Shown here one piece after another: positions 6,223 through 60,833 of a DNA stretch of 64,000 bases; within the stretch, counting starts at the first letter, position 1, and each line of letters starts with the position of its first letter. This DNA is from Asterionella formosa. Lineage: Eukaryota. The stretch spans positions 1 to 64,000 of the forward strand of contig NKIB01006075.1 of NCBI GenBank assembly GCA_002256025.1. Direction: 5' to 3'. The translations under genes and the position numbers were made by a program. Below the pieces are notes generated by a model. It was not told where the DNA came from and made no database searches. It saw only the letters and a list, made by a program, of their open reading frames with translations.

Positions 6223-7399
6223 TCTATCGGACTGTGCGCGAGGATTCAAGTGAGTACCGGTACGGTAGATAGAGGAGGGCTGCAGTTGCTTATCAGAGAA
6301 GTGTTCTCGACAACAAAATAATATAACTGTCAGTAGGACATGCAATATTCTTGCTAATCGCAAGCGTTTAGAAGCAAATGCAAAGTTTCAGGCACACAGC
6401 ATCGTATCATGGGATGCAGCATCAGCATGCGCCAAATAGTATCCAATCAACGACACTCACTGGCTGACTTCTCCTCGCCATCAATGATACCGAATAGAAG
6501 TAACGGTAACAGGTTTGCCGGTACTACCACCAAGTACCGGGGGAACATAGTACCAGGTACCAGGTACCTGGTACTTGGTACTGGTACTTGGGATGCATCA
6601 GCCCAACTTTGACTGAGTCTGGTGATAAATGGGAAAACTTGATCATTGAAATTTCAAGCTGCTGTTGTTCTCATTAATTTACTTATAATTGTGATATCCA
6701 TTTATTTGCCTTGGTTTCAGGCCAGCGAGATAGCAACCAATTTTCCTCGACGGGTGGTTCTTACCTCTGCAGAAACATAAGGTTGAATCTGGGGCCAGCA
6801 AATACTCATTTTTGCTTTCCTACTTTTTTCATTGGAAGAATTGCCAATTACCAAGTCAATGACACTGGAACGCATTGACCATTGTTTCGCAGCTGTACAT
6901 GTACATAAATAGTAGTTTTTGACTTTTGCTGTTGAATGGATTGGGTACTACTCTTGTGTTCTTGACAAGCAAGTGAACTAGCTAGTCTACTAGTAGTAAT
7001 AGGAACAAGGACTCTTTCTCTTCAACGTCACTCTTCAACGACTTGAAAATTCAATACAAATGATATGATGTAGGCCAATGCTAAAAAAGAACCAGCAAGA
7101 TGGAAACATGAACAAATAGTCATTTTGTTCCTGTTTAGCCTGTTTTCCTTCTGGGTAAAACTTCTTCTTTGGATTTCACCAATATTTTAGTTGAGCCATT
7201 CTACAAAATCCTATAATATTTTATTTTGCTCCTTGCTTGTTTTGGAAAAATTGGCCACTGAGATTCCCCTCAAACACAATGAACCACAAAAAATCACAAG
7301 TAATGCTAAATCAATCAATTGATTGACAATGGTTGTGCTTTTGGTAGTGTCGGTGACCTCATAGACAGGGTAAATGATAGCAAAATATAATAATTCAAT

Positions 7400-8359: not shown

Positions 8360-9043
8360 GAAACAATATTAATGTAGCAATTAAAACACAGTACTACTAA
8401 TTATGATTTTTTTCTACAATGATTTTCAATTGCCAGTATCAGCTTTTCACTCCTCCTGGTTAGGGAACGGTACGTCGTACCAGGTACCGGCATGCGGTAC
8501 CGGTATCTCTTGGTTGTACTGAGTCCAGCGCTTCCTGGCTGCAGTTCGTCAGAAAAAGGGCGATGGTCGTTCTGCCATCGCTCATGCAGAATTTGCTTTT
8601 TGGCCCACCAGACATGTGTCGCGACGACCCGACAGAAAAGATGTACGAACGGTAACGGGACAGCCAGGTGAACTACCTGGTACCTGGTACCAGGTACCAG
8701 GTTCACCTGGGTACCCCTCCCGTGGTTACAGAATTCATCTACATTCTATGTAAATAATGATTGATAGTCACATGAGGATAACAATAATCGCCAAACGGTC
8801 GCATTGCTACATATATAGCATAGCAAAGATAGTAGTAGAATTTGATTTATTCTATTCGCCTTCTCTTGGCAGTCGATATTACTATTATTATATACGGAAT
8901 CCCTCAATGCAGTGGGGGAGTTTATTTTTTCAATGTTTATTCACCTTTTCAGCTGATCCATCTCTTCGCCATTTTACTCGTATATATCGCTGTGTAGTTT
9001 CACACATACACACAATACGAACCAGCAGCAGAAAAGCACAACA

Positions 9044-11996: not shown

Positions 11997-12065
11997 CCTG
12001 AAAGTTGTGGTAATTTTGCTGAGCTAAGGATTTAGCTGTTAAGCAAAATGACCGCATCTTGTTGT
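11997..12065. mobile_element. MITE copy 2 (internally deleted)
   Basis: TA|CCTGAAAGTTGTGGTAATTTTGCT ... AGCAAAATGACCGCATCTTG. Confidence 0.75.
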
Positions 12066-15688: not shown

Positions 15689-15784
15689 CCAGCAAGTTAT
15701 GGTAATTTTGCTTAAACTAATAATTTGACTATCTTTATCCCATATTAAATTGTTTGTTTAAGCAAAATGACCGCATCTTGCAGG
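15689..15784. mobile_element. MITE copy 3 (flanked by CA...CA)
   Basis: CCAGCAAGTTATGGTAATTTTGCT ... AGCAAAATGACCGCATCTTGCAGG. Confidence 0.85.
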
Positions 15785-20104: not shown

Positions 20105-20122
20105 GTAAGGTACCAGTAGGTA

Positions 20123-20860
20123 CCACTTAAAAACTGTAAGCCACCGTTATTATACTCCATCTTCCGACTAAAAAATATTCAAGTAATATAACAATCGAAA
20201 CCTGATGCAAGTACGAAGTGTATGTTACACGATGCACTCTTTTGTACGAATAAGTAATCACTTTCGATTCAGTGTATAAAGCCATGAAGATCTAATTTTT
20301 TTAAAGTCATTAAGATTGTTGCATAGCGGTGGCTTACAGTGCATATTTTTCTATACATACATGAGTATATTTTCCCCCCAAACCGTGATTATTTTTACTC
20401 AGTTTATACTACAGAAACTATTTTCGTATTACTTTACCTTTTTTGCGCGATGCAGTATGCTTTTTGCGCTTGCATTATCTGCGAATTCTTCTGATGCATA
20501 ATGTATTCGAAAGCACAATGACGTCGTACATACATTTAATAATGCTAAATTAATTCTATGGCAAGAATTTCTCCAAATACATGTGCACGTGTAGAAAGAC
20601 GATGCCAGCTCAATAGAGTAAACATGAAATTTTCCATTTTTCGCAATTTCGCGTCGACAGCAACCTTTGGGCCGTAATAAGTAGTTAACAACTTACACAA
20701 TGCAACAATACAAGTACGTACGCTATATAAATCTGAACAACTCCTTCGTGACAATAATTAACGTATCTTCCAAACTAAGTTCAAACCGTGCGTTTACTCC
20801 GTTTAGAGGTGGCTTACAGTTCAAAAGTCGTCATAGCGGTGGCTTACAGTTTTTAAGTGG
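20123..20860. mobile_element. 738-bp non-autonomous TIR transposon (Tc1/mariner-type TA target)
   Basis: 28-bp TIR CCACTTAAAAACTGTAAGCCACCG(T/C)TAT with one mismatch and TA on both flanks; internal copies of GGTGGCTTACAGT near 20328 and 20808. Confidence 0.9.
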
Positions 20861-21432
20861 TACCAGGTATTGTGCAACATTTCCACACTCCTACCATGTA
20901 CCTGGTACCTTGTACCTGGGGAATCAGGACAGGGTTTCATCTGCGTTGTTACCCCAGAATCAGAGATTTTTACCTCGGCCGGGTGCTGTATCCTATACCG
21001 GTAGACGGTCTTCTAGTATTGGTATCCCTCTCAAAATGACGACAAATCTGCACAATATATGATTTTCTGATGACCCCTCAAATCGTTAAGTGCTTTGTCG
21101 TATTTAATTTTTATATGGAAAGGATGGCCTTCCCAGAAGAGGTCATTATGAGGCTTTGGTCCCCAAATTCATAAGTATCACGAGAGTTCGTGTTGGACCC
21201 CCACAAATGAACAGAAAAACATGCCACATACAATTTTACCATTGTCATGGAATCAGGAGGTGATTGACGAGTGTCTGACAATCGAGAAATTATCATGTGT
21301 CCCTGCTTTACATCGAAGTTATAACCGTCCTGTACCGGACCTCCCGGAATACCTAAATTCCACATCCTACGGCAAGCTGAACTACGAACAGGAAAACCAC
21401 GTCATTTTGCTTGGCCCAATTCATCTCAAGTA

Positions 21433-21527
21433 CCTACAAGTTGAGGTAATTGTGCTGAAACTAAAAGTTTAGCTGTTTTAATACGATATTGAATTGCATT
21501 TTTAAGCAAAATGACCGCTGTTTGCGT
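21433..21527. mobile_element. MITE copy 4 (diverged)
   Basis: TA|CCTACAAGTTGAGGTAATTGTGCT ... AGCAAAATGACCGCTGTTTGCGT|TA, 95 bp. Confidence 0.75.
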
Positions 21528-22724: not shown

Positions 22725-24326
22725 TTAGTCTGTGATTGACAACGGCACTTCATCTATCTCCTGGGCCCTCCACCACTTGTTCGCTCTGGCTGTCCCGATC
22801 AACGCCGTTATACATCGGCCTGCAAAGAGCGTGACAATGCCTCGACTCCATATGGCTTCAACAGTCGTGGCTTGGTGAATTTGCCAAACTGCCAAAACGG
22901 AGGACACGAGTGTCCCTCCAGCGAGCCACGTGTATTGATTCGAGCCGACGGAAAGAGACTCCACTACCAATGTCCATGATATTAAAATTTGCTGCCATGC
23001 CAAGTGAGGCATGAGATTCACAAGATGCAGTCTAATGTGTGGATCCTTGGTAAAGATACTTGGCACGACCGTACCCATGATGGTAATTAGTAGGGTACTT
23101 GCGAGTCCTTGAATTGTAGCCACTTTCATCATATACCGTGTCAGAGAGCGTACCTTTGATTGCACCTTTAAATGTCTTCCCATTAGCACTTGTGCAGCTA
23201 CTGCTACTCCGTCCAACCACATTGCAAAGATAAGCCAAAACGAAAGTCCCACTTGATGGGCAGCGACATGAGGTATCCCCAGTCTTGTTGCTCGCGCTGT
23301 GGCATATGCCCATCCCAGTAGCAGCGATCCCTGCTTCGCCATCATGGCCAAGTTGGCGCCAAGAATTGTTAGAATGACTTTTCTTCGATTGACGTGGGCG
23401 TGGCGATTGTCCTCCTTGGTGGGAAGCATCTTCTTGATCCACAAATGATATGCAAATATCAAGGCTGCTCCTAGTTGTGAGATTGCTGTCGCTGCTGCTG
23501 CTCCCTTGACTCCCCAACCAAAGCCAAACATAAGAAGAGGATCGAGCACTAGATTAATCCCAGACGCAACCATGGACGCAATTAATGAAATCCGTGTGTT
23601 TCCGTATCCCCGAAAGGCTCCTTCCGCCACCACCAAGAACAAGACTGCTGGTGCTGCCCACAATCTGGTTGTTAAATAATCAAAAGCTGGCTTATATAGA
23701 TCAGACGACGACGGAATTCCCATTTTCTCCAATGCCCACGTGCCGCCAGCTTTCAGTGAAACCAACACCACCAAGCCAGTGACCAAACCAAAGAGCAAGG
23801 ATAGTTGTGTAACCTGCTTGGCGTCTTCAGGTGATTCTGCACTAGCTATCAAGGACGAAGTGGCAGTGGTGGTCGCGCGAAATGCATTAAAGGCAAGATG
23901 GAAGATGGAAGTGCAAGCTCCTAATGCAGCAAGTTCCGTGGACCCGATGCGACTGACAAAGCCAGTGTCCATTAGTGATAGCAATGGATCTGCCATCATG
24001 GCAATCCATGCGGGAATACAAATAGCCATTGTCGGAGCCAACCAGTTATCCTTGCTGCTTTGCGGTTCATCTGAAGATGAGTCGAGTGTGGCTGTGAAGA
24101 GAGCCACATCATTACGATGGATCCGAAACCTACACGGACGATTGAGTATTGTGAGCTGAGCCTTTTGACGGCGTTTGGTTGGTTGTTGCAACGGCCTGTA
24201 GGACCGCTCCCATTGATGTGCTATTCTAGGGATATTTTGAACTGATGAGGTGGGAGCAAAGCTGTTGGTCCATTTGCTACAGAGCGCTAGCAGTAGCAAC
24301 AGGAGCGCTGATGGTCGATTCATCAT
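22725..24326 (-). CDS. MATE-family efflux transporter (DinF/DTX-like), probably plastid-targeted
   Basis: Motifs ADPLLSLMDTGFV, EGAFRGYG, NLVLDPLL..FGWGV.GAA.AT and AAHQV; signal peptide followed by SFAP. Confidence 0.92.
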   Translation of the reverse strand: MMNRPSALLLLLLALCSKWTNSFAPTSSVQNIPRIAHQWERSYRPLQQPTKRRQKAQLTILNRPCRFRIHRNDVALFTATLDSSSDEPQSSKDNWLAPTMAICIPAWIAMMADPLLSLMDTGFVSRIGSTELAALGACTSIFHLAFNAFRATTTATSSLIASAESPEDAKQVTQLSLLFGLVTGLVVLVSLKAGGTWALEKMGIPSSSDLYKPAFDYLTTRLWAAPAVLFLVVAEGAFRGYGNTRISLIASMVASGINLVLDPLLMFGFGWGVKGAAAATAISQLGAALIFAYHLWIKKMLPTKEDNRHAHVNRRKVILTILGANLAMMAKQGSLLLGWAYATARATRLGIPHVAAHQVGLSFWLIFAMWLDGVAVAAQVLMGRHLKVQSKVRSLTRYMMKVATIQGLASTLLITIMGTVVPSIFTKDPHIRLHLVNLMPHLAWQQILISWTLVVESLSVGSNQYTWLAGGTLVSSVLAVWQIHQATTVEAIWSRGIVTLFAGRCITALIGTARANKWWRAQEIDEVPLSITD

Positions 24327-25067
24327 GGTCGGATTTGTTGTTTAATGTTAAAGATATTACCACTTACTGTCCCTGGTACCGGTATTTTTGTTATCCAATG
24401 CTACATACACCACTGGTAAATACTTTTGCCAGGAGGTATGATAGCAAATAGTACATGTATGCACACTCCGCATTATTATTGTTTGTATGTACGTATGTAC
24501 AGTACAAGGTAGCTGGTAGATGTTCCTACAGTACCAGTACCTGGTACCGGTACCTTAGTCTATCTGGTACCTGGTACCATTGTACAGTGTTCTAGGGAAT
24601 CATCTACTACCGCCTGTAAGAAAAATCTCTTTCCTGTCAATGGTGATACCAGGAAGCAATGCAGCAGCTTGGGTAATGACCGATATAAAAATAAAAACAG
24701 GTAGGCAGGCAGGCCTCCTCCATATGGACATCCGACCGCGTTGTACTGTATGTTTGTTTGCAGTATAATTAGCCAGTGTACTTCTACCTGTTCTATACCC
24801 CTATAGCACTTTGTACCTGGTACCTGGTACCTGGTACTGTACCAATCACGAACACTTGCCTGGGGCCTCCGCTTCGTAATTGTTCGTTCCTTGCGTTGCT
24901 TTATATGATATCGTTTTTGGCTCCGCCCTGACACAAGAGGAGGAGTGTCCGCGTGCAAACATAAATATTCTATACTTTGGTTGCTGTACTGTCTCTCTCT
25001 CACTCTCGTTTGGAAAACAAGTAGAGAATACCCACACTGAAACACTTTTTATAGCAAAGAAGAAAGG

Positions 25068-25403
25068 ATGCCACCACATATTTGGGTTCCCAAAACTCCC
25101 CAGGAACTAACCAAGCACTTGACCAAAGCCACGCGGCACAAGGAGGCTCTCTCCCTTTATCGAGAAATATTAAGAACGGCCAAAGTATTTCACTGGGTCG
25201 AGGAATCATCGGGAGAACCATGGAATGAAAAACTCAAAAAGGAAGCACGGAAGGAATTTGAAGCGTCTAGAGAAGAGAAGGATCCATTGATATTAGCACG
25301 CATGATGGTGACGGGAAGGGATTGCGTTCATCAAATACAGATCAAGTTCAATGCAGCGGACAAGGCAGCAAGGGAACGGATTGAACGAGATAGCAGGAAG
25401 TAA
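25068..25403 (+). CDS. LYR-motif protein (Complex1_LYR family, mitochondrial)
   Basis: ALSLYREILR...ARKEFE...E.DP pattern, 111 aa. Confidence 0.88.
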   Translation: MPPHIWVPKTPQELTKHLTKATRHKEALSLYREILRTAKVFHWVEESSGEPWNEKLKKEARKEFEASREEKDPLILARMMVTGRDCVHQIQIKFNAADKAARERIERDSRK

Positions 25404-26194
25404 TGTGGAGGAAATGTACATTAAATGGATAGAGTCACATGGGGTGATTAACTCACAACGTTTGGATATTTTCTTTCCAATCAATCACGGTCTACCATAA
25501 AGCTATCATTTTCTCTTGGAAAGGATATATTTGAAGCCGCATGACCATCATGTCATAATGTCTTCGGCCCTGGTTGTTTCGTACATGGAATCAGAAATGT
25601 GAGGACCGAACTTACTTGCATGACTCCTGCACCATTTGCACTTGATACTGTATAACTGGAGTTGACACATCGCTATTTTACGGTAGTATCTGATGACTAC
25701 TATAGAGGGGGACTTTGGGGCCATATTCGAGTGCACACAGGTACATACCGGTTGTTTGTCTCCTCCTCTGTAGCTGGCGAGCCTAGTGTGCAACGTTGCA
25801 TTTTAGATCCCACAATCACAAGAAAGTTTTTGTCATTTGTTTTCACAGGATATTTACGTCCCGAGCGTTTCCACTGATCGAATTCCAGGAGAGTTGAAAA
25901 CACCCGATACCGCCCAGCAACGAATTAATTCCTGCTTTATCCTATACGTTGATGTGCGTCGCTAGAGGATGGTGATTGCTGGGTGTCGTAATTGCTGTAC
26001 TACATAGTTATAGCTACAGAACCTCTGTGTTTGGACTGGAGATGAAAGCCCATCCATTTGTACAGTGTGTTACTAGGTAGGTAGGTAGGCACTTCAATGG
26101 GTTTGCCTTTGGTTGTTTTTGTGCGCAATGACTAGTGTTGAGAAAAGTTTTCGACGTTCATGAAATATATAGTTAGATTACCATATATTTTATT

Positions 26195-26953
26195 TTATGC
26201 CGAAAACGACTCTTCCGTTTTGTCAACTTTTCCACAATTGACAAGGACATAATTCTCAAGTGGTTTGGAACGTTTAGTGTAAATGCCTTTGGCTTCCAGG
26301 TCCAATAATGCCTTCAGAGATTCATCACTCATTTTCCCAAAGGGAACAAATTTTCCTTCCAAATGTGGGCTGTCATGTGTAATTAGCATAAATCTGGAAT
26401 CCACCTTGTCCACACCTGGTGAAACCATTGTAATAGTCCCTGGAGTGTGTGACATGACAAGTGGCTCACTATCCACACAGCCCCACTTGTTGGCCACGTC
26501 GGGATGACAAGCCCCAAATTTTCCTGTGTTTAGAACATAATCTCCCAAACACCAGCCAACATCCTTTTGGATGCGATAGACCAGCGAGTTTTGGTATGAT
26601 TTGCTGTCACAGCACAGCAATTCAAAGTTCTTGGTGGTCTTTGGCAGTGCGTATTCTGCCAGGGTCAAGTCAATCCTTGTCAAATGATCCTTTTCGTCCT
26701 TTATCTCTAGAAACATTTGAATGGCCCCGAGATCCAAGGCTTGTTGATTAAGCGCCTCCAACGCCACAACGTCTCTCGCGTGATACCGGCCCTGCAAATG
26801 ACGACCACCCAATCCTGCACGGTATTTGAGATACCAACCGCGGCCCTTGGCTCCTCTACTTCCTGTGGCGAAGTGTCGTGATGATGAAGTACCGGCAGCA
26901 ACAAAAATCGAGCTACTACGAGCAAAAACGGCGGTAATCAACGAAGCCGTCAT
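26195..26953 (-). CDS. Divergent cyclophilin-like protein with mitochondrial-type presequence
   Basis: PKTTKNFELLC, YQNSLVYRI, HTPGTITM, SRFMLI and HLEGKFVPFG trace the cyclophilin fold. Confidence 0.85.
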   Translation of the reverse strand: MTASLITAVFARSSSIFVAAGTSSSRHFATGSRGAKGRGWYLKYRAGLGGRHLQGRYHARDVVALEALNQQALDLGAIQMFLEIKDEKDHLTRIDLTLAEYALPKTTKNFELLCCDSKSYQNSLVYRIQKDVGWCLGDYVLNTGKFGACHPDVANKWGCVDSEPLVMSHTPGTITMVSPGVDKVDSRFMLITHDSPHLEGKFVPFGKMSDESLKALLDLEAKGIYTKRSKPLENYVLVNCGKVDKTEESFSA

Positions 26954-27761
26954 GGTGTAGAATATTTCACTATAGGTACATCAGTATTCCCTGTATGTGC
27001 GACCCCACATTTATATTTATAATAAATAAATCTATATTTAGCTGTAGATACGACACGTACGTTGGTCTACATGTTGACTAATTGTTAAATAATTACTTTT
27101 GTAAATAGCGTAAATATTTGCTGCGAGCTTCCAGTCATACCTGAATATCTGTATAAACATGCATTATAAAATTACCTCGTCCATACTGGTAATATTATTT
27201 CAATACCAGGTAGCAGGTACCTGGTATACCCTGGTACCATGTCCGTGTGGAGTACGTACTTTGGGTACCAGGTTACTTGGTTATCATAATACATATGTAT
27301 GTACATGTACATGTACGCCGGCAAAATTCTGAATCTATTGTTATCGGTACTGGTACCTGGTACCAGGTGGTACCTGTTACCAGTACCGTATGTATGGCTA
27401 CTGTGCGTGTAAATCATTGCTTACCGGTACATGCTTCTACCTGGCACCCCCTTGTAAAAGCATGTATGCAATAATTCAAACGCGCAGTAGCCTGGGACCA
27501 GGTCCTGGTATCGCACCAGGTAATGTACCGGTATTGATAGACGTACCTGTGGTTTTGTGTGAATACGAGTACCACTACCTGGTACATATGGGGCACACCA
27601 CGCACATTACAGATTCAGGTCCCGGTAGCCGGTACCTGGTACATATGATGAAAGAATGCATCATTCTTGCGGATTTTGGAGTTTTGTCATTGTAATTTTG
27701 CGCAAGATCAGTTACCGGTAGGATTATTTCCTCATCGTCCTTGCATCGATCTCAGCACATC

Positions 27762-28712
27762 ATGTCTCCTGCAATATTAAAAGAACACCGCATCTCAGTG
27801 GCCTTGTGCCTTTGCATTCTCATTGCTTTGGTTGGGTGCTACAATAGCAAATTGCTCATGCCCGAATGTTCATTTGTATCCACTTCTGTTGGCAAGCCCC
27901 TTGCCGCTCTCGACAACTCCTACTCTGTTGCTGCGAAAGAAAGTTTTGGATTCTTTACCGATATTCCTGATTCCACATGGGCCCTCAAAAAGAACATTTC
28001 CAGAGCAACCAATCTTGGCTTGTCGGCGGCGTCTTTCAAGTTTGACGAGACGCTACCCAAAGAGGACCGTGACAAGACTGTCGGTTATTACACCAATACA
28101 TGGAATCCTGATTTTGCCTGTCCCATGGACGTTGCGTTGGGGCCTGTGGGGGATGGTCATAAGTGGGTATGTGATGCACACCGATTGGCAGCTATCAAGG
28201 ATTGTTTGGTTTATAGTGTGGGCAGCAATGGTGTGTTTTGATTCGAAAAGTCGATAAACGATCTTGCTCCTAATTGCGAGATTCACATTTTCGATCCTGA
28301 TGATTACTCCCAGAAAATGAAAGCTGCCAAGATTCCCAACAGTTCATTTCATGTATGGGGGTTGAAAGGCTCCAATGCTAAAATAAATTTGACAGGCAAA
28401 CTTAAAGGACGGGCTTTGGACTTCAAGTCCTTGGAGGAAACAATGAAAGTACTTGGTCATGCGGGCCGAGCAATTCATGTCTTCAAGATTGATTGTGAAG
28501 GATGCGAATGGAGCACATATGAGGATTGGTTGAGCCAAGATGTTCGAAAAATTTTGGTTGAGACACATGGTTGGAATTCTCGATCACGGATATTCTTTAG
28601 TGATATCAGAAAGGCAGGTTTTGTAATGACACACAAGGAATCAAACATCTTGACTAAGGGTAATTGCATGGAATATGCCTTTTTGAAATTGGCAAAGACA
28701 TTTTTCAACTAG
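27762..28712 (+). pseudogene. Methyltransf_22 / METTL24-like methyltransferase interrupted by a single in-frame TGA (28239-28241)
   Basis: GDGHKWVCD, CLVYSVGSNG-VF*FE, CEIHIFDP, IHVFKIDCEGCEW and ILVETH all lie in one frame across the stop. Confidence 0.85.
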
Positions 28713-28764
28713 TTCGAGCTGATTGCACTGTCAAAAACATTGGAGCAACCCAATGCTGTTGTAT

Positions 28765-29240
28765 CACAAAATGGCCCATCACACCTTAAGAACACAAAAG
28801 GTAAATTAAATTTGCTTATCAAAAGCTACAAAAGCTAATATTATGTGCCCCAAATGTCATGGTATTTGAGCCAATGTTATCCTCCAAAAAATTGGAGTTT
28901 TATTATGATGAGGTATGTTTATGCGGAAAGGAGCAACATAATACCTATTCATTTGCAGTCATGGGAACAAGAATCAGGTGTCCATGTATTTCATTAATAA
29001 TGGACAGTTTTCTCAATGCTCACTTGCTTGTCATGAACCTTGAGAGACTCAGCTGACAAGTCAAGGTTGCTTGCTTTGGACATGATTGTTTTTAGGTTGG
29101 TAAAGAATCCCAAACTTTTGTTCACTGTCACAATGGAAGAGTTGTCGAGGGTGGCAAGGAAAGTAGGTTAAACTGGGACTGCAACCTCAAGTATATGAAA
29201 GATGCTGCCAATGGAGTTTTGTTTCATGATACTATGCAAA
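28765..29240 (-). pseudogene. Degraded inverted paralog of the adjacent methyltransferase
   Basis: Reverse complement of 29101-29160 aligns to about 27899-27958, 29041-29095 to about 27985-28040, and 28950-29005 to about 28078-28128. Outer boundaries approximate. Confidence 0.75.
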
Positions 29241-29359
29241 CACCTATATGTTTTGGATATTGAGAATTTTATGTTTTCGTAAACTAAAAAGCTGTAATGT
29301 AGATGAACCAAATTCATACTTCAGAGACTCTTGCATTATCTGGAAAGGATGCTTAATTA

Positions 29360-29520
29360 GTGGAATGGCTTAGTGGTTAGCGCACCTCATGAGGTGGCAG
29401 GTTTAATACCTGCATTCTCCACCTGTCATTCTTTTATGTAGTCCCTAGGGGTCCAGGGTGTGTGGCTGACAAGGAGACAGGTCCTGTTGTACCATACAGA
29501 CGAATAAAACCAGTACTAAC
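29360..29520 (+). mobile_element. tRNA-derived SINE-like element or tRNA pseudogene
   Basis: A box TGGCTTAGTGG (29366-29376), T-arm GCAGG-TTTAATA-CCTGC (B-box-like), partial acceptor pairing GAAT/ATTC ending CCA, shortened anticodon arm, and a body of about 100 nt ending near AATAAAA. Confidence 0.55.
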
Positions 29521-29646
29521 TGTGTCCATTCAAGTGGGCATGAGTACAAATTTTCGATAGCTTTAAAGTACTATAAGATTAATTGATAATTTTTTGCAAA
29601 GAATGCTTCATTAGCCAGCTATTTTTCATAACTATGCACAGTATTC

Positions 29647-31144
29647 TCATTTGTTTTGGTTCAGAAACTCAGTAATATGAGCTGCAACTTGGTCTTGTTC
29701 CAACAAGAAGCCATCATGGCCATCATCACTATGAATCACCTTGAAAGTTGAGCCAGTCATATGTTCTGCCAAAAATGCCTGCTCGGGAAGTGGATACAAC
29801 ACATCAGAATCTATGCCCATGACAAGAGCTGGAATGGTAATTCTGGAAAGAACATCCTCAATAGAACCATGTCTACCTCTGGAAATGTCATGCGAGTCCA
29901 TTTGTTCTGTCATTTTAACATAAGTTACAGGATCAAATCGAGTTAAAAACTTTTGACCCTGATATTCCAAATAGGACTTTGCCTTCCAGCAAGCCTTACT
30001 GCCATACACTACCTCGTTGTCACCTTCCTCAGTCGTGATGGCTCGGCCAAACTTGTTTTCGTAACCCTTCGCCGTCCTATAAGTAATCATTCCCATTTGT
30101 CGTGCCACTGCCAACCCCATGGTAGCCTGCATGTGGCGACCAATCTGCCACATGGGATCAGCGTAAATGCTCTGACGCTGTACTTCCGAAATGGCGATTT
30201 GCCATGCTGTGTGGGAGGCGCCACATGCGATGGGGATGACAGACTTGACAAAGGGTGTAACCGAAGTATCTGTGAAGCAGTACATTAAACAAAGTGTAGC
30301 AGCATGGGGGGGGGGGGGGGGGTTTTTTTTTAATTTAATTTTAATTTACCCAATTTTCATGAAACGATCAGATACAGTAGATGAATGAATATAAAAGCAG
30401 CACATTGTCGAACTTACCAGACTCGATGGTCACAAACTCAGCATCGGTGCTCCCTCCCAGAACAGCCGCTTCCATACTTTGCATTCCTCCAAATGATCCT
30501 CCAATCACTGACTTGACACTTTTAATATGTAAATGTTCTTGCAGCAACTTGAGTTGAAGCCTCACTGTATCTTTGACACTCACATCTGGAAAGTGGATTC
30601 CATATTTCCGTCCAGTGCTGGGATTGATGCTTGCTGGACTTGTACTGCCATAACACGATCCCAAAATATTGCAACACACCACAAAGTATTTGGTGGTATC
30701 AAAGGCACGTCCATCTCCCAATAATCCTCCCCACCATGAATGCAAAGACGCATTCCCAGTAAGGGCATGGCAGATAAGTAGAACATTGGTCTTGTCGGCA
30801 TTCAGCGCCCCGTAGGTTTGGTATCGTAGTTCCGCTTGCGCCAGCACCTCTCCGTTTTCCAACAGATAATCCTCGACTACATAACTTTCCCCGCTATCGT
30901 CCATCGTTCCATATTCGTCCTTCATTTCTTTGGAATGCTTGGTGGTATTACTGTAGGAGCAGGAGCTTTGCCGATGATTGGAAGAAATCATACTGGAATC
31001 TGGAAATGATGACCCATGCAAACTACTTGTTACATTGGAAGTGGAGCGGGGCCAGGACATTCCAGCACGAGCCAAGAACGAGTAATGACGTCTCTTGGTT
31101 GTGGACTGCGCCATTCTCTGAATCACCAGCGTCGATAACTTCAT
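29647..31144 (-). CDS. MET2: Homoserine O-acetyltransferase (MetX/Met2 family), 2 exons: 31144-30418, 30269-29647
   Basis: Motifs ICHALTGNA, NILGSCYGSTSP, IGGSFGGM, GIDSDVLYP and GHDGFLLE; GT-AG intron 30417-30270 restores the frame. Confidence 0.92.
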
Positions 31145-33337
31145 TTTCTTTGGATGTTCTTTTTGGATTCTGCTTTTGTTCTTCTTTTGTGGCTTTTCCT
31201 GTGCTTCTTGTTGCAGTTCTTCTGCTTCGTAGTCGATTCAAGTCTCTACACAACACTGCTGTCCACAGTTAGGGATGCGATCATCACTCTCGAAAGAGGT
31301 ACAACTTTGAACTTCGATTCGCTTAAAAATGAAAGAAGCTGAAGAACACCGACGCCTTTCATTGCAGCCAATTCTTACGTTAGTCTAGACGACTACCTGT
31401 ACCTGGTAGCGGTAATACCTGGGATTTGCATGCCAGTAGACGGCATGCATTATACATAGTGCGTGGGAGTACCAGGGTACCAGGTAAAAAACTTAAGAGC
31501 ATCGGTATGCCGGTATATATTTTGCTGCCTACATAATGCCGGTAGTCTACTTCTGCACATTTGTTTATAGCTAAGAAAATATATTTCATTTACCGGTACA
31601 GAACAAGTCTATTTATAATAGCTCTATCCAGCGAACAAACCGGCATAAGAGCAGGCAAACGAGGTCGAGAACTCTGCCTGCATAATGATCCATCAGGAAA
31701 ACGTACGGACAACAAACATCGGATGATTTCACCGATGTGGAACAGACGGACAGAATGTATGTACCAGGGTTTACAGGCACGCAACCAGGGGATGGTACCC
31801 TGGTACCTGGTACCAGGTACCAGTACCAGGGTACCAGGTAGCGGTATGCCTCCAAGCAAGTTGCAAAAATTTTGCTATTTGCACATGTGTTCGTATATTG
31901 TCGTGCCAACAATAATGATTCCAATTCCAAATTGATTCGTGTTTATCATTTTTTGAATTATGTTTGATAAGAACCAACCCAGCTGGCTTTTCATAGGAAG
32001 TGAAAGTACCCACTTTCTTGGCCTTAACAAAAACTCTCCTGTGCGTTATTTCTCACCTATCATTGTTATTCTTTTCATTTCAGGAGTGCTTCAGAAACAC
32101 CATCACTCTCTCAGTGCTCCTTGCAATGTGATTGAAGGATCAGTGAATTGTTGAGTGATTGGAAAGGAAAAAGTCAGCTACAGTCGTTTCATGCAAAATG
32201 ATGCAAATATAGTCCAAATTGGTGAAGGTTTTTTGGTTGTATTGTTCATGCATGCTATTTCTCAACCATGCTCTTGCTTCTGTCATTGAAGTGCTTCACA
32301 GTCAAAATCTTTATCAGCACTCCAATTTGGTTTGACTGGTAAAGTATTAGTGTGCTGCAATAATAGCAATGCTGGGGCCCAAGACCCAACAGATGATTCA
32401 AACATCACTTTCAGAAATTCCATATTTCTGTAGGACTCTAAAGTGTATTCATTGTTGAAATAGCAAAATAAATTTGAATAGTTGTAAAGAATACGGTAAA
32501 ATTGAAACTCACTTATAACTCATTTTCTAAGACCATGGAGTTGCATGTGAATTTCATAGCACAGCCTGCTGACAAGTCTGTTTGCTTCCCTACTACTTTT
32601 GTTTGCATGGTGGAGTCTTCATCCATCTTTCATAAAAAAGGTGAATGTCTTAGCCACAGCATTTGGGGGAACTCCAACTGTCTAGGAAGGCGGCACACTG
32701 CTTGTGAGGGGGGGGACCCACTTTTCCTTGCACACCAGGCAAGACCATGTTTATTTTGGCCAGTGGATGCAAACCATTAGAAGTTTCAAACTTTGATTTC
32801 TCAATGGCTCCCAAGTTGGGAAATATCTGTTGGTTCTGGGAATGAACAAAAAAAGGAGGGCAAATTACCACAACTTGCTGGTACTACCCAGTACCAGTAA
32901 AAAGCAGACCTGCTACTCTGATGATATGTACCAAGTAAATCAAGCTGTTTCATTGAATTCAACTCTCAGAAGACCCAAACCAAGGCTTGCTTTCAATATG
33001 ATTGGTTCACCTCTCATTCCATTCCCATGAGAAAATATTAGGAATTGTGTTATCATCCTGGGTTCCTTTAGGAATATCCATCCCTTGATGTGTAATATTT
33101 TGGAGTTTGCAGAGTTGTCTGAAATTAGCATATTTACTATATTAAATCATTTTACAACCGTTGTCCAAGTGTCAAAATCCCATCTGCCATGGAAAATGAT
33201 GCATGTGTCTGCAAAGATTGAATTGGAAACCTATGGTTGCAACATAGTGTGAATAATTCAAAGTGTGCCATTATCCAAAGCAGTTGATTCGGCATGATGA
33301 GTTGATAGATATGATGTCAGCATTCCCCTCTGCATTC

Positions 33338-34406
33338 CTATGCTGGACACGGAATATCTGGAGGACCCAAATCATGCGACTTTATAGAACGAGAATCCAA
33401 ACTTCGATCCTCAGGAATATCTGGAGGACCCAAATCATGCGACTTTATAGAACGAGAATCCAAACTTCGATCCTCAGGAATATCTGGAGGACCCAAATCA
33501 TGCGACTTTATTGAACGAGAATCCAAACTTCGATCCTCAGGAATATCTGGAGGGACCAAATCATGCGACTTTATAGAACGAGAATCCAAACTTCGATCTT
33601 CTGTGGAAGATGCCGAACAACTGCGACTCGATGGTCTGCTATCCAAGTCTAGGAGCTTATGTGATGAACGTGACTTGAGAGCATAGATCCTTGATGACGA
33701 CGATGATGATAGCAGGATTTCCAAGGTTTCTTTCTTTCTTCGAGTCTTGTCTATATCTTCTTGTTGAGGAATATAATCCTTCGATCGGGAACAACAGCAT
33801 ATCTTCTTCACCCCATCCCTACAGTTTTCCATGAACAGCTCGAACCGGGCATATTGTAATGTCGTTACGGTTCTCGTTCGTTGATTCTTGATTCGAATGG
33901 AGTTTCGTATTGCCTCCACAATTTGTGATCTGGGGACATCCCATTCGCCAATGAGCAATTCTTCTCTATCCTTTCGTGAAAGTACTCTTGATTTTTGGGG
34001 GCGTGATGCTTTCAGTTTTTCATACTGTTCCAAGGACGTGGTTGATTCGGAGTGATAAGACCAGCCGAGCCTTGATTTTGCATAGCACGAGTTGTGACAC
34101 ATGAGTGATTAACAAAACAGGAGTCAGTTTGTGAAATGCAAGACACCTATTCCATTGTATCACAAACGAATGCCGTAACTTCGAACTTTTTCATTTGACT
34201 TACCCAATGGGCGGACCTGCAGTGACACTTGGATTGTCACCAACAGCACGTTCGTAATCTCGAACAACAACACTTTTAAAGGATACACTGGGATCAGCGT
34301 CATCCTCCTCACAAGTAATGACGCGAAGCTTCTTCTTGATAATCCCATGTTTGTGAAGTGATGCGTCGAGTGATGAGACTCGCATGATGCTCTTGGTGGA
34401 TGTCAT
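33338..34406 (-). CDS. Diatom-type hypothetical protein (VSF..V.VRDY....GDNPS...GPPI.LGW family), exons 34406-34204 and 34070-33338
   Basis: GT-AG intron 34203-34071 joins GPPIG to LGWSY in frame. Confidence 0.8.
33351..33600 (-). repeat. Coding minisatellite, 4 x 63 bp (EDRSLDSRSIKSHDLGPPDIP)
   Basis: Near-identical units start at 33351, 33414, 33477 and 33540. Confidence 0.95.
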
Positions 34407-35293
34407 AATGAATAAAAACAGTGGATGGGCGAGGATTGAGTTCTGGAAGATAATGAGTTGGTGCAAATCAACAAAGTACCGGCAGAAGCAGCAGAGCTTG
34501 AGAGATGCAGCATTTAATTTATACGAAAGAATGGAGGGGGAAAAGGGAATGCGAATTCCTTATGTCGCAGTCATTTGTTGGGACTCATCGAGTGTACCTG
34601 GTACCTACCAGGTACAGTATCATATGCAAATATACATATATACCGGTAATACCATGCCTGAGTGTACCGGTAACATAACCTTTATACCGGTTTACATATA
34701 CTATTTATTTATTTATTTTTAATGAAAATACACGTACCGGAATACCTTTGGACAAATTGGTACGGTGCCAGTAGTTGCTGGTACCAGGTACCTAGTGAGC
34801 CACTTGGTACTGGTACCATCCCAGGAATGCATGCAGTTTTCGTCATTTTTCAGAAACAGATTATGTCACCATTCAGACAGGCACTAACTGAAAAGGTCAT
34901 GATCAGTTCATTTTTCACGGACAAATTACCAGAATTCTATTAGCTTCACCGGACAATCGTCCGGTATTTGAGAGAATAATCCAACTGTTGATCACGCACC
35001 AAGCCGATCACGATGAAGCTAGTGATTTCCGGTTTAAGTTGTAGTGAAACAAGATTACGTTCGGCACGGGGTTCTTCTGGACGTCTAAAATTATGGTCCC
35101 CAGGTACCAGGTACTGTACTTTAAGATTGTACCGGTACTTGCTCTACAAAAGGCTAATTTTTAATGGAATCCTGATTTTGCCAACATGTGCCTTTTCTGT
35201 GAGTACAAGTCTGATATATATACGTGGTTGCAACTTGCAACTCCTCAACATAATTTAGATTTGCATCAGTATCACTCCAACGCAAAACGAATA

Positions 35294-35388
35294 CCTGCAA
35301 GTTGCGGTCATTTTGCTTAAACCAAAAATTTAATCTTGAATAAAGGCAGCTAATTCTTTAAAAGAGCAACATTACCGCAACTTGCTGG
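35294..35388. mobile_element. MITE copy 5 (best preserved termini)
   Basis: TA|CCTGCAAGTTGCGGTCATTTTGCT ... AGCAACATTACCGCAACTTGCTGG|TA. Confidence 0.9.
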
Positions 35389-35490
35389 TATACAGTACTC
35401 CTGTAAGTAAAAGTACCGGTATCTATTATACCAGTACATAAAGGTGCCTGCATTTGAACACCAATTTAGGCAAAAATAAAAATATTACTA

Positions 35491-36480
35491 AGGGCCGTTC
35501 TTATCAAATTTCATCATTTATCACTAAATTTGAAAATGTTTCAGCAATGGTAACTCGATTCGAACTGAATTTCATTCATTCCAAACTTGACACTATATCG
35601 CTAATTTGTATCACAGTGAATCATGGTGTAACATGGATTGTTGGCAGCAACAGGCCAGCAACTAACATCTAAATATATATGAGCAGTCGTGATATGGATA
35701 TGCGTAGTCTAAATAAAAAAATTAGAATTCAATAAAATAAAAACATCATGTGACGGAGCCTGTGTATACATGTTACTGGTTCTGTGAGGCTTGTCAACAT
35801 GTTGTCATCAATGCATTGACCATGTTTATCATCAGCCATTTCTCCATCAAAATGGCAAACAAGTCGCTGTGCCTTGGATATCTAATATATCATTAGTATA
35901 TGAACGATTTAATAGAAAGAGAAATATATAGACATATCTTTAGAATTGAGTAAGAAGTTACGAATCTATGATGTAAAAGAATATTTGTCAATTTATAGGA
36001 AGGCAAATAGAACTATAGATTTGTTCTGGCAATGACTAAAGCTATGACCACCAAGACAATTAGTATAGCAATAATATCATACGACAAAAGGGGTTGCAAA
36101 AGTGGTGTGAGGGTAGAATTTTAATTATAGACACCATTAGATCAATCGATTGTACCAGTGGTGTTTTCATGTTGCTCTGTGAAGCTGATGTTGATTTTCC
36201 CATCAACAAAATAAATTATATAGCTAGTGCTGGCATATTTACGGTTATTTTATCAGTGACAACGGACGTGATACATAGTGATCAGCGGCTGTATCACTGA
36301 TACCGCATTTGTCAGGGGTCCAAAAACTGATACACCCATGATACACTGGTGATCAGCCCCAAAAAACCGAAAGTGATACAAAAAATATGATACAAATATG
36401 ATACAAACCGTCATTTTTGTATCATATTTCGGCGATGACACATCAATGACGACCAATGACAGAATGATAAGAATGGCCCT
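35491..36480. mobile_element. Non-autonomous TIR element of about 990 bp (PIF/Harbinger-like termini)
   Basis: TIR AGGGCC(G/A)TTCTTATCA at both ends, with TA (or TAA/TTA) flanks; the right end is also found inverted at 42412-42491. Confidence 0.75.
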
Positions 36481-38933: not shown

Positions 38934-39289
38934 TGATGGTCACAACGTGAAGGAAGTTAACATGATCACCACCAATGCCACCATGGGATTTGGTTAACTC
39001 CTTCGACAAGCAAGGGATGTGATAAGAATTGATTTGTAACAATGCCACGCAGTATCTCTGCTGCACGCAAAGGGATAGAATATCATAGCTAGCTAGGCAA
39101 TCATTGTTAACATCTGCATTTTACCCTTCATGTATGCAACTTTCTAGCTTGCTAGATTCGTTCTGAATTGTTTTGGGTTTCCTGGAATCTGACAATGCAC
39201 TTGAGCATTGCGAATGCCTCTTCCAGCACTGATGTTGACAATGTATGTTATAAATAAATTATTGATTAAAGTGTAGTACCAGGTGAATT

Positions 39290-39493
39290 ATCTAACTAGA
39301 AGTAGTATTATTTGTTGAATATTAGAGGCTTTTTCAATCCTTGTGTGCAACTTGTTCTCCTAGGTTGACACTAAATTACCGGTATGCAAAAAGTGTTACC
39401 GGTAGTCAAGTTCTCTCCTGATAGAGTTCTAATGATCCAACCCGATAGGTGTATGTGTGTCACATTTGTGTAGTTGAGTGGGATCGCTCACCA
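39290..39493. mobile_element. Interspersed repeat, probable LTR 3' part (copy B), carrying two CCGGTA insertions
   Basis: Aligns with 93-284; TACCGGTA at 39377-39384 and 39397-39404 where copy A has TA. Confidence 0.6.
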
Positions 39494-40115
39494 GGTACCT
39501 GGTACCAAAGTATGTAAAAAAGCCAAACCAAGATACCGGTACTCAGGACATCATGCGGCATAGGGGATAGCTGAAATTAAGAAAATGTTCATGTAAGAGA
39601 ATCTCCACCGTATTGACCAAATACCAAGCCAATTGCATTTGGGAGTCGTCATGATGTGTTGTCTTGGTCGTAAAAGCAAAAAGATTTTAGCCACCGCATC
39701 GACCAAGACCAAATATGCTTTGGTCTTGATTGAGGATGACCCCCTTATCGACCAAATATCAGGTATTTGGTCGATTAGACTCCGACCGTAGCCAAACAAA
39801 GGAAGCGTTTCTATTGGTCTAGATTATGGCTTGCGCCGGCAACATAACGTCGACTGTTTAATTGATCCATCAAGGCTTACAATACACATTTACCTTACCC
39901 TCTTGATGTAGACAAATAATAAACTTAAGTACAAATACCTTTGAATAATACCGGCAGCTATCTATAAAACAATCTCATGCATAAAATATGATATCTTGCT
40001 GAATGTTGTCCTTCAAGTCTTTGACGGTCTCAATAAGATATCATCATCAATTGGCGTCCAAGCAGGATGCTACATGAGTAGGAGCAGCTGCCAATGAGGA
40101 TGATAAAGCAAAGTA

Positions 40116-40209
40116 CTGCAAGTTGCAGTCATTATGCTTAAATAGACAATTGAATCAAGGATAAAAAAAGCTAAATCTTTATCCTAGCAAAATTACCGCA
40201 ACTTGCTGG
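40116..40209. mobile_element. MITE copy 6
   Basis: TA|CTGCAAGTTGCAGTCATTATGCT ... AGCAAAATTACCGCAACTTGCTGG|TA. Confidence 0.85.
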
Positions 40210-40831
40210 TACCCGGTAACAGTTACCTGGTAGATTTGTAGGGATATGATCGAAGTCACAAGAAGGGGGGGGCCTTTTAATCTGCTACTACCGGTAGCCA
40301 ACGGTATTCTTTACGTGAAAAGAAACGGATTACCAGAAGTCATCGAAACGGCTATTGTTTGCCTAGAGTATAATACCAGTACCTACCTGGTACCGTACTT
40401 ACCCCGTCTCGCGACATTTTTGCGACAAAATCAACTAGTTGTGTCGTTGTGGATGATATTCTGGAACTTGGTCTGACATCGGGATTTGTTCGATTAGGCA
40501 CTTTGTTGTTCGTTTCCTTCACGAACACTACTTGGATTGCCGGTTGAAACAGTGAAACTCACAGGCATATGATAAACAAAAAAGGAGCCGCAATCTGAGG
40601 GATAATGACCCTTGGAACCTGATGAACTGTAACAACTAGGAGTAACTGGTTTTGATGGAACATCCGTACTAATGTGGCGTGTACATTCGATATAGACGTA
40701 GGCTTGTTCGCCCTTGTTAGACTTGCAAACTCAATCCAATAATAAATTGCTCAAATCACACACAAAATTGGGAAGCAGAAGGCAATCAGAACAACATCAA
40801 AAACAGAAAGCGAGCAACTTGTGACACTGAA

Positions 40832-41467: not shown

Positions 41468-42768
41468 ATACCCTGATTCCTGCTGCATCCGAGAATATAC
41501 GCATGATATCTATACACTCCTGTGACCAGTTTTGCAACCAAGGACCTGCCTAGGTTTTTATTATATTTAAATATTTATTAGAGAAGGAACGATGGTTCAC
41601 TTTTATTACATTGTACCAGTTCATTGGCTTGGCTTGAATAGGTAGTATCGGTATTTGTCATCTTTGGCAACATTAATTCGCATTCTCATTATGGCTGATT
41701 GTGAAATGACTTGTCGAGTTATGCCATCGCTGTGATGCAAGATTGAGACAAATTGGGTATGTCATGAATCTTTGTCGACAGTCACAAGCGAACATAGTAA
41801 GATCGACATGTGTCATGAAACTATGTATTTCAAAAAAGGCCTTCTTTTAGGGTGGGTACAGGAACTGTAATTAATAGCCTTCGGTCTTCATAAATGGCCT
41901 GAGGAATACCACGTGAGAAACATGCATATTTGTATCTAAAATTGGTAAGCAGACCAACGACACTTCCTAGTTTTAATGACATATGGTACCAGGTAGTTTC
42001 TACCGGTATTCTGCATATCTTTAGTATGATAACTATGTCTGTCTAATTAACCTACCGGTAAATGAGCTGAGCAAGTAACCGGGACCAAGGCTTACGTAGT
42101 TCGGAGTTGGATTACCGGCCGGTAGGCAACATCACCGCTGTCATATTTTCATGTACGATTAATTGTATGTACCGGCATACTGTTACAGGGCATACTGTTA
42201 CAGGTACTCTAACTACATACCGGTTAGTATTCTGTGCTATGTATTCACGATTTGTCCCCCGATAGATGATACTGGCATACCAGGGTAACAAGCTGGGGTA
42301 CTTGACCCTGGTACCAGGTACTCGGAGTAACACCATCAGTGTAAGATCTGGTACCGGTACCTGGTACCAGGTTTACCTGATGGTTCGTCATTTCAGAAGA
42401 TATTCATCACATTAGGGTCATTCTTATTTTTCTGTCATTGGTCGTCATTGGTGTATCATCTCCGCAACATGATACATAAATGGCGGATTGGTTTTTTTGT
42501 TAGTTTTCCAATTATATCAAATAAGAAGAAACTGAAGAAATGAGACAAGTCATCATCAATATCATTGAATTCTCGTCATGTACTAAACAAAACAGCTGAT
42601 GCAACAATGACAGTTGCTGTGGCATTGAAGTGCAATCACTGAACTTACAAAAATATCTTGCTCAGCAAGGAAGTTGAACAAGAGTTAGACTTTGTATTTG
42701 AGGAAGTCAAGAGCAAGAAGTATACTGATTCTTTTAGTATAAGAAGAAAGAAGGCAAGGTTTGCATTA

Positions 42769-44015
42769 CAGTGAAACCTCCCTACTATAGGATACACTCC
42801 CTATAGGATCATACACCCTCTATATAAGATACACTTTTCTCAATGAAGCGCCCCCAATTTGGATATCCTTGCAAAGGCCCCTCTATATAAGATACACCCT
42901 CCATTAGATACACTTGGATACACTTTTGCTGAAAAATTGGTTATTCCGACCTCTGTAATAAGATTAAAAAAAGCACCGGACAGTCTGCACTCAGTTTGAG
43001 CTAGTAATTTTTCCTTGTTTTGCATGTTTTGATCATCTCAAATCATTGCTGTGGACTGACAATCTTCAGTACTACTGGGAGTATCATTTTACATGTTTAC
43101 GCATACAAAAATACATGCTTATGCAAGCACAGTAATAGAAGCGTCAGTAGCATACCTACCACATCATCTTCTTGCTTAGCGATGATCTGGAGGTACATGG
43201 TACATAGTATCACCACTTGTGACATTAGTACTTGTTCATGAACCTTTTATAATAATTTTTAGTTATACTTTACTGAAAGTAAGCTTGACCGTTACTTGTC
43301 CATTTGCTTCAATTCTTTCACTTATTACAATCTCCAAGACTCAGACATCATCGCCATTGGGAACTGAAGGAGTTGTGAAGAGCATGTCGTAAATGAACAT
43401 AAAGCGTAAAAGTGTTTCCATTGATACAAAGTTAGCGGCAATAAAGCTTCTTGGTGAAGGGAATAGTGTTAGGGAAGTTGCTTTAAACTTGGCATAAGCA
43501 TTGGAACTGTTCAAAAAGCAAAGAAAAAGCAGGAGGACTTACTGATGGAAGGAAAATCGATGCGATCAATGAAAATGGCTCGCCTTAACAGTGGTACAGA
43601 AATCAAAACAGTATTTTGGAGATGGTTTTGCACTGCTTGCGCAACTGGATATCCAATTAGTGGACCCATCCTACAAAGCAAGGCTTTGTCGATTGCCAAA
43701 GCATTTAAGCAAGATCATAATCTTAAGGCATCTAATGGCTGTCTTGAAAAATGGAAGATGAGACACAATGTCAAATCCTATGCTATTTGTGGAGAGTCTG
43801 GGAATGTAGACATTGATAAGGCTGAAGAATGGAAAGCTTTCTGGCTAGTTTGTGTGATGGATATACTCCAGCCAACATTTTCAACATGGATGAGACTGGA
43901 TACTTTTATCGTGCTCTTCCAAATTCAGCTCTCAATCAAGCATCAAAATCATGCAAAGGAGGAAAATAAGCGAAGGATCGAGTTACAGTTGCCTTGACAT
44001 GCAGTGCAGCTGGGT
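42769..44015 (+). mobile_element. Truncated pogo/Tigger transposon (5' TIR plus transposase pseudogene, about 43393-44015)
   Basis: TA|CAGTGAAACCTC terminus with GATACAC subterminal repeats; CENP-B-type HTH (KRKSVSIDTKL, PISGPILQSKA, KASNGCLEKWKMRH) and NIFNMDETG...KDRVTV across frameshifts. Confidence 0.92.
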
Positions 44016-44129
44016 ATCAAGTCAAGCTTGAAAATGAGAGTCCTCCACAACACTCCCCTCTTGCACACACTATGCCAAAAACCCGCTCAATAATATTTCG
44101 TTTCCACCCAGAAAAAATTAATTGAATTA

Positions 44130-60651: not shown

Positions 60652-60833
60652 GTCGTTTCCGACGCACCGTAACAAGCTACACAGTATACAACACACTGCA
60701 TACAGATGAAAGAACCACCACAGCAACTGACAATAAACTCATGGAGATAGTCCAAAATGACTGACATCCTCCACCCAACAGCATCATTAAATTGAGTAAG
60801 GCCAGTGATACTATGCATAAAGTGGGGGTTGTA
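59425..60833 (+). repeat. Direct repeats: 59619-59795 and 60654-60833 (near identical), plus a diverged copy at about 59425-59573
   Basis: Shared CGTTTCCGACGCACC...CCACCCAACAGCATCATTAAATTGAGTAAGGC. Confidence 0.92.
59792..60393 (-). mobile_element. Ty1/copia 3' end: RNase H remnant, polypurine tract and LTR of about 275 bp (60066-59792)
   Basis: EDNTGAIFLSK...GSRAKHIDVRYHFIRE, then GGGAGGA followed by TGTCAAGAT...ATCTACA. Confidence 0.85.

Follow-up and report, generated by a model that had tools for sequence, protein, structure and literature searches.

The window, by which we mean the whole stretch of 64,000 nucleotides that was analysed, is nuclear DNA of a pennate diatom. It has a G+C content of 41–42%, many ORFs and short spacers. 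The best named matches to a MatE transporter ORF come from pennate diatoms (Cylindrotheca, Nitzschia, a Bacillariaceae MAG, Seminavis and Mayamaea; 50–57% identity), and positions 24400-34399 are present in 20 public runs from 16 studies, labelled mostly as freshwater metagenome. The feature under study occupies the spacer between two genes recognized by Pfam match:

22725-24326, minus strand: MatE transporter ORF, 532 aa
26198-26980, minus strand: cyclophilin-type ORF, flanking the focal cluster
27172..27650, no strand: focal cluster, in the spacer from the cyclophilin-type ORF (minus) to the Methyltransf_22 ORF (plus); 12 core units, starting at the TAs at 27184, 27204, 27218, 27227, 27348, 27354, 27378, 27384, 27422, 27526, 27576 and 27633
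27696-28709, plus strand: Methyltransf_22 ORF, flanking the focal cluster

The Methyltransf_22 gene is split by an in-frame TGA (28239-28241) into ORFs 27696-28238 and 28242-28709, which share one frame and correspond to Pfam profile positions 2-98 and 107-252. Position 28239 is G (GGA, no stop) in runs X2, X6 and X7, and X1 agrees with the window; the TGA is either a nonsense mutation that distinguishes strains or an error in the assembly. Elsewhere the window carries a run of 17 G (30306-30322) between two alpha/beta-hydrolase ORFs, where Logan contigs appear cut (around 30295-30353), a 279-nt inverted repeat (59121-59399 / 60394-60672; 96% complementary, arms 994 nt apart), a 95-bp tandem duplication (19165-19353; 2 copies, 96% matches) and a 63-bp repeat of 3.9 copies (33351-33598; 97% matches) inside ORF 33341-34108 (minus strand).

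The focal stretch was recovered in contigs of three other runs from three other studies, over 25651-27359 in X2 and 27330-28646 in X7 (0 gaps in each) and over 27152-27872 in X6 (22 gap letters). Coverage of 27172-27650 by these contigs shows that the arrays there were not created by the assembly. Across array regions further downstream the other-strain contigs show 16 (X2, 40185-42459) and 21 (X7, 40934-42459) gap letters. An earlier note on this DNA, which described TA-delimited arrays of short units and read them as stacked transposon excision footprints, had staked the reality of the arrays on independent data; they are found in X2, X6 and X7 alike. The other clusters in the window, none with an assigned strand, are:

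6551..6588: array of CCAGG, CCAGG, CCTGG, CTTGG, CTGG
8468..8716: two small spacer arrays, with a perfect palindrome at 8674-8701 (CCTGG twice, then CCAGG twice)
24527..24845: arrays of CAG, CCAG, CCTGG, CCGG (from 24527) and CCTGG three times, CTG (from 24814), upstream of the MatE gene
31394..31845: cluster with the longest chain (CCCTGG, CCTGG, CCAGG, CCAG, CCAGGG, CCAGG from 31796), adjoining a 1021-bp relative of the family-1 MITE described below
34595..35140: loose cluster of units
40205..40395: units, flush with a family-1 MITE end, and more further downstream
42290..42380: cluster of units

Palindromes that span a whole array occur at 8674-8701, 6551-6588 and 27345-27388.

To count units, the sequence was split at every TA and segments of 2–6 nt that start with C and end with G were retained (C...G units). 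Between consecutive TAs we observed 180 such units versus simulated means of 40.2–106.8 under Markov models of order 1–5 (100 simulations each). Chains of at least two units number 27 versus 0.35–3.7 under the same models, chains of at least three number 6 versus 0–0.17, and the longest chain has six units, where the simulations never exceeded three. Among 6-mers the strongest enrichment is that of GGTACC and TACCGG, each present 52 times where base composition predicts 10.1; of the longer motifs, TACC[AT]GGTA has 38 copies and TACCGGTA has 29. The unit spectrum is narrow and consists mainly of CCGG (29), CCTGG (23) and CCAGG (15), followed by CCAG (10), CTG (10), CTGG (8), CAG (7) and CCG (7); CCWWGG, the full product of two overhangs, is found once.

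The 126 core units (∼ 2 per kb) are distributed over 100 chains, of which 84 have one unit and 11 have two; the rest are two chains of 3 units, two of 4 and one of 6. Just 14 of the core units lie in ORFs of at least 150 aa, though such ORFs make up 37% of the window; the units are grouped in loose intergenic clusters. The earlier note had listed eleven sites, and the motifs are present at every one of them; it had also proposed a count against a Markov background, and at the scale of the window the excess is borne out. Its picture of dense arrays holds in that the units are enriched and the chains exceed simulation, but most units are single and the clusters are loose. The stretch 27172-27650, which had been called the densest, belongs to a cluster that has two counterparts of similar size: the three lie at 27184-27713 (13 core units), 34595-35429 (13) and 24377-24835 (12).

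Three families with terminal inverted repeats (TIRs) share the arrangement TA-CC...GG-TA at their ends. These and the other mobile elements on which the interpretation draws are:

35292..35390, plus strand: best-preserved copy of family 1, TA CCTG CAAGTTGCGGTCATTTTGC ... CAACTTG CTGG TA, also written TA CCTG CAAGTTGCGGT...ACCGCAACTTG CTGG TA
771-858, 12001-12061, 12074- (left end only), 15693-15780, 21437-21524, 31857-32877 (1021 bp) and 40119-40205: other family-1 cores
20121..20862, no strand: non-autonomous TIR element of family 2, TA, CCACTTAAAAACTGTAAGCCACC ... GGTGGCTTACAGTTTTTAAGTGG, TA
39277..39497, plus strand: family-3 repeat, TA CCAGG TGAATTATC ... GATCGCTCA CCAGG TA, also written TA CCAGG TGAA...CTCA CCAGG TA
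43473..44125, plus strand: frame-shifted remnant of a pogo-like (Tc1/mariner superfamily) transposase (HTH_Tnp_Tc5, E 1e-9)
44141-44515, minus strand: weak DDE_Tnp_4 fragment (E 0.0086), with no link to the family-1 MITE
35491-36480: Harbinger-type non-autonomous element of ∼ 990 bp, ends GGGCCGTTCTTATCA (GGGCC), flanks TAA/TTA

Family 1 is an 88-bp MITE with TIRs of ∼ 25 bp and eight occurrences in the window, where its 19-nt core has 15 matches versus 0.03 expected. In run X1 the bins that contain family-1 elements have a summed contig depth ∼ 30–300 times that of single-copy bins, which shows that the copies are many, though summed depth is not a copy number. In genome contigs the core gave two matches, both in bacterial MAGs and at chance level by a rough estimate, and in viral contigs none; these matches were set aside. 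None of 18 ORFs of longer family-1 relatives had a Pfam match pointing to a transposase at E up to 1. Family 2, at 20123-20860, has perfect 32-nt arms ending in CCA...TGG and sits inside an array. It is the only element with an unambiguous TA duplication and is present as a single copy, against the 126 core units of the window; three subterminal copies of GGTGGCTTACAGT near its ends (20327-20345, 20808-20826 and 20833-20851) form a pattern typical of transposase-binding repeats. Family 3, at 39279-39495, has a paralogue at ∼ 82-293, and the bin that holds the listed copy (39074-39740) has a summed contig depth far above that of its neighbours. A search for TA-flanked inverted repeats returned mostly pairs of one array with another.

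The neighbouring frames of the pogo-like remnant contain ...NMDETG... and KDRVTV..., which may be DDE_1-like motifs. As a candidate TA-targeting transposase the window yielded just this frame-shifted remnant; no intact one was found. The Harbinger-type family, which also provides the inverted repeats 36404-36480 / 42414-42490 (the latter being a third related arm), was rejected as a source of the units, to which its GGGCC ends and TAA/TTA flanks are unrelated. A further ORF fragment, 54292-54726 (minus strand), matches the Plavaka transposase family (PF18759, E 5.8e-11). The units match the ends of resident elements flanked by TA; CC(W)GG corresponds to the end bases of all three TIR families, as the earlier note had anticipated when it proposed a comparison of the unit spectrum with TIR termini.

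Most of the evidence on polymorphism comes from public metagenome contigs, which may be more or less closely related to the organism of the window. A search with the family-1 MITE core yielded 16 short contigs (13 non-redundant loci); reverse-complement units are neighbours in 2 of 47 pairs there versus 7.9 expected, i.e. fewer. All-against-all comparison produced 75 indel rows, many of them redundant. These rows and the indels from the spacer, MITE and family-3 alignments described below were collapsed by hand to 29 distinct indels of at least 4 nt between near-identical or paralogous sequences. In ten of these, one or more C...G units plus TA were gained exactly at a TA; eight of the ten additions are unlike the neighbouring unit, whereas two copy or nearly copy it. 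The remaining 19 comprise two units at TA that are not of the C...G type (CA and TGA), one indel within an array without a TA anchor (TGGTACT), two plain tandem duplications and 14 unrelated changes. One allelic pair (L006/L014) differs by a single 11-nt indel (TTCGTACGACG) that could not be assigned to a class.

Three of the contigs (L005, L009 and L016) are variants of one locus, 93–97% identical by BLAST with gaps counted, that we assign to an rDNA spacer because positions 1-69 of L009 match the 5' end of eukaryotic SSU rRNA; they may stem from different rDNA copies or from different strains. This spacer, which precedes the 18S rRNA gene in a related organism, contains the family-1 MITE as well as long arrays of TA-C...G units, and units and MITE family are therefore shared beyond the locus of the window. 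Both were met in records labelled marine and in others. Within the spacer, GATGA TA CTCTC in one variant corresponds to GATGA TA CCGG TA CTCTC in another, with no unit nearby, and GGG TA GAC to GGG TA CCAGG TA GAC. CCGG plus TA was gained at two different adjacent TAs, CATA[CCGGTA]TTTATTTG (CATA[CCGGTA]TTTA) versus CATATTTA[CCGGTA]TTTG. Inside the spacer MITE, GCT TA AAC is matched by GCT TA CCAGG TA CCGG TA AAC, and a second block lies at GC-TA-AATC, where L016 has CCGG-TA, CCAG-TA and TGA-TA, and L009 has CA-TA with CCGG-TA, and TGA-TA. Both blocks are absent from nine of nine other copies of that MITE, and the inserts are for this reason derived. The 13-nt insert in the L009 MITE (CCAGG-TA-CCGG-TA) recurs in the L016 allele as the same string, ∼ 110 bp further upstream, and may in this instance be a short templated copy.

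The window offers the same kind of difference. Its family-3 paralogues are distinguished by two 6-nt insertions, each CCGG plus TA at a TA: AAAG TA TAG versus AAAT TA CCGG TA TGC, and GTGT TA GTC versus GTGT TA CCGG TA GTC. The resulting TACCGGTA strings are located at 39377-39384 and 39397-39404 in the listed copy, and the paralogue at ∼ 82-293 lacks both. Several of the unit-plus-TA insertions thus compared lie at TAs without any unit nearby. Units come and go between spacer variants of ∼ 93–97% identity and between repeat copies, and in these sequences the individual sites are not conserved. Judged by these alignments, units are added at TA sites; the prediction of the earlier note that indels would be insertions of a unit plus TA exactly at TA agrees with ten of the 29 distinct indels.

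Our main reading, to which we give a probability of roughly 55%, takes the TA-C...G-TA units to be scars left by cut-and-paste DNA transposons with CC...GG ends whose integration target is TA. When Tc1/mariner elements excise (Tc1, mariner, Minos), 3' overhangs of 2–4 nt from the element's termini stay behind. Short 3' overhangs from the TIRs of excising DNA transposons are described in PMC4423477. An element of this kind would duplicate the TA on insertion and, on excision, would leave a few of its terminal bases at both sides of the break; if end joining kept two or three of them per side, TA would become TA-CC(W)GG-TA. Ends of the form CC(W)...(W)GG would yield TA-CC-GG-TA and TA-CCWGG-TA, and more trimming would give shorter forms, so that CCGG, CCAG/CTGG, CAG/CTG and other variants are predicted. 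Each visit would add 6–7 bp and one TA, and because every scar adds a TA the number of local targets would rise. As insertions are tolerated between genes, scars would accumulate in the short intergenic spacers as clusters and occasional arrays, which slippage or unequal exchange may later alter.

We count in favour of this reading the excess of units, the TA-anchored indels, the polarity, the chance-level neighbours in the window (see below), the three TIR families and the pogo-like remnant. The near-absence of CCWWGG, the single copy of family 2, the identical neighbours in the metagenome loci, the W rule of family 1, the possible templated origin of the L009 insert and the failure to find an intact TA-targeting transposase are counted against it. 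None of the 16 metagenome loci provided an element-occupied and a scar allele of the same site; we infer that the additions are excision scars, which kind of element made them and how many end bases were kept. The earlier view of stacked excision scars stands in so far as units are gained at TA, their C...G form matches TIR ends and simple slippage does not explain them; no donor element could be tied to any of them. Hairpin or P-nucleotide scars of the hAT type were considered and rejected, since CCGG inserts do not complement the bases beside them.

Several other explanations bear on the same data. A degenerate 7-bp micro- or minisatellite, (GTACCWG)n, whose length changes by replication slippage and whose copies later degrade through point mutations, would account for the short period-7 arrays reported by Tandem Repeats Finder (e.g. 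24813-24837, 3.6 perfect copies) and for the two TA-anchored indels in ten that copy or nearly copy a neighbour. In the window, however, identical units are neighbours in 5 of 42 pairs, where the unit pool predicts 4.9 (P 0.55), arrays combine unit lengths from 3 to 6 nt (with 4, 5 and 6 nt in the same array), single units make up 84 of the 100 chains and gains occur at TAs without a unit nearby. Because neighbour identity is no higher than chance there, simple slippage does not account for the unit pattern of the window, and we consider a satellite origin very unlikely. The 13 non-redundant metagenome loci do show an excess of identical neighbours (17 of 47 pairs versus 8.7 expected, P 0.005), and some arrays are therefore subject to slippage or unequal exchange. 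The statement in the earlier note that the arrays are unlike a slippage microsatellite accordingly applies to the window, with its chance-level neighbours and mixed unit lengths, but not fully to the metagenome loci. It is also highly improbable, in our judgement, that TACCGGTA and TACCWGGTA are selected palindromic sites for a dimeric transcription factor, clustered in promoters. The motifs are indeed palindromic and the units intergenic, often between divergent ORFs (e.g. 24.3–25.0 kb and 27.0–27.7 kb), but gain takes the form of a 6–7 bp insertion at TA and not of point mutation, the spacing is variable (CCGG or CCWGG) with many truncated forms, a MITE and the rDNA spacer also contain units, and near-identical sequences differ in which units they carry. 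Scars might nevertheless be used as binding sites at a later stage. Little credence can likewise be given to the idea that breaks at TA are repaired by copying nearby array bases (templated insertion or ectopic conversion), so that arrays seed arrays without a transposon. The local clustering of units and the recurrence of the 13-nt L009 insert upstream in L016 would fit, but the process requires unexplained TA-specific breaks, a two-unit match is weak evidence where three unit types are common, and both family-3 inserts in the window are single CCGG units.

A further explanation concerns the maker of the motif. TACCWGGTA may be mainly a landing site, made by some other means, into whose CWG core family 1 and perhaps family 3 integrate, duplicating CWG as NuwaI elements do; this would be compatible with scars from a different TA-targeting family, and we hold it to be possible but on the whole doubtful. 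A TA lies 2–8 nt outside the conserved core at 25 of 34 family-1 ends, and directly beyond that TA a C...G unit is present in 10 of the 25, versus a background of 190 in 3953 (4.8%; P ∼ 1e-7). The W of the left CCWG and that of the right CWGG agree on the top strand in 9 of the 11 copies that are informative (P 0.033), and both orientations of W relative to the internal polarity of the MITE occur, as read by eye. Among the 12 full copies the 3-nt flanks form a perfect direct repeat in four, a repeat with one mismatch in five and with two mismatches in three, and a TA at the exact spacing is found on both sides in one copy, on one side in seven and on neither in four; decay of old copies could be the cause of the missing TAs. 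CWG target duplications are known for NuwaI (PMC4482050), and the weak DDE_Tnp_4 fragment may be counted on the same side. Against a landing site stand the small sample of 12 full copies, the fact that NuwaI elements are known mainly from animals (PMC4482050), the failure to link any transposase to the family-1 MITE, and the observation that conservation is higher at the bases adjoining the core (G left, C right) than at the outer positions of the putative duplication, though not significantly so. It also leaves the gain of CCGG plus TA and CCWGG plus TA at plain TAs unexplained. As CCGG contains no CWG, the TA-anchored additions, above all those of CCGG, would be left to another family such as family 2. 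The equality of W in 9 of 11 copies nonetheless suggests that family 1 inserts into the CWG core of TACCWGGTA and is not the maker of the motif, and within the excision-scar reading family 1 is more likely a seeker than a maker of it.

Joining the excision-scar reading to this preference gives a two-step, self-reinforcing cycle in which TA-targeting CC...GG transposons would write scars whose CCWGG core would then serve as the landing site of a second, CWG-duplicating class of MITEs. We advance this cycle tentatively and regard it as unlikely. If it were true, scars would nucleate transposon hot spots, and diatom promoters would contain a new class of simple-sequence DNA that could be read as a log of visits.

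Excision of Tc1/mariner (IS630-Tc1-mariner) elements leaves TA-bounded scars, of which TAC(A/T)GTA of Sleeping Beauty is canonical. The units resemble such footprints in having extra bases between duplicated TAs, bases that match element ends and form a small family of length variants. They differ in that the core is CC(W)GG and not C(A/T)G, in their density of ∼ 2 per kb and in the stacking of several; donor and excision, moreover, were not observed here. With Stowaway-like MITEs, the non-autonomous Tc1/mariner elements that duplicate TA, families 1–3 share a small size, a high copy number, the lack of coding sequence and TIRs flanked by TA. Unlike these, family 1 has TA at the exact spacing on both sides in a single copy of 12, its W rule points to duplication of CWG or of W, and no Tc1/mariner transposase with matching ends was found in the window. 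The NuwaI group of the PHIS (PIF/Harbinger-ISL2EU-Spy) superfamily, which is reported mainly from animals and makes 5'-CWG-3' target duplications (PMC4482050), is resembled by family 1 in its flanks (...C CWG, element, CWG G..., with W equal in 9 of 11). Family 1 departs from NuwaI in that no more than 4 of its 12 copies have a perfect duplication and that Pfam revealed no linked NuwaI-type transposase or Myb ORF. Short tandem period-7 runs are shared with ordinary microsatellites, from which the units differ in being mixed in length and orientation, mostly single and gained at plain TAs. A search of the openly accessible literature returned no description of stacked scars or of such arrays in diatoms. 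Scars at TA are textbook knowledge for Tc1/mariner; the present units depart from them in their CC(W)GG form, in how densely they occur and are stacked, and in their association with MITEs for which the scar may be a target.

The MITE families and their possible motif preference would be useful as strain-typing markers in a widespread freshwater diatom. If the units are scars, they would constitute a dense and countable record of transposon traffic, in which core units outnumber the MITE copies still present by about ten to one, and past transposition rates and hot spots could be estimated from sequence alone. Cut-and-paste elements would then be able to build a distinct kind of repetitive DNA, palindromic and rich in CCGG and CCWGG, in the promoters of a compact genome, and such DNA would offer a substrate on which regulation could change and new insertions could occur.
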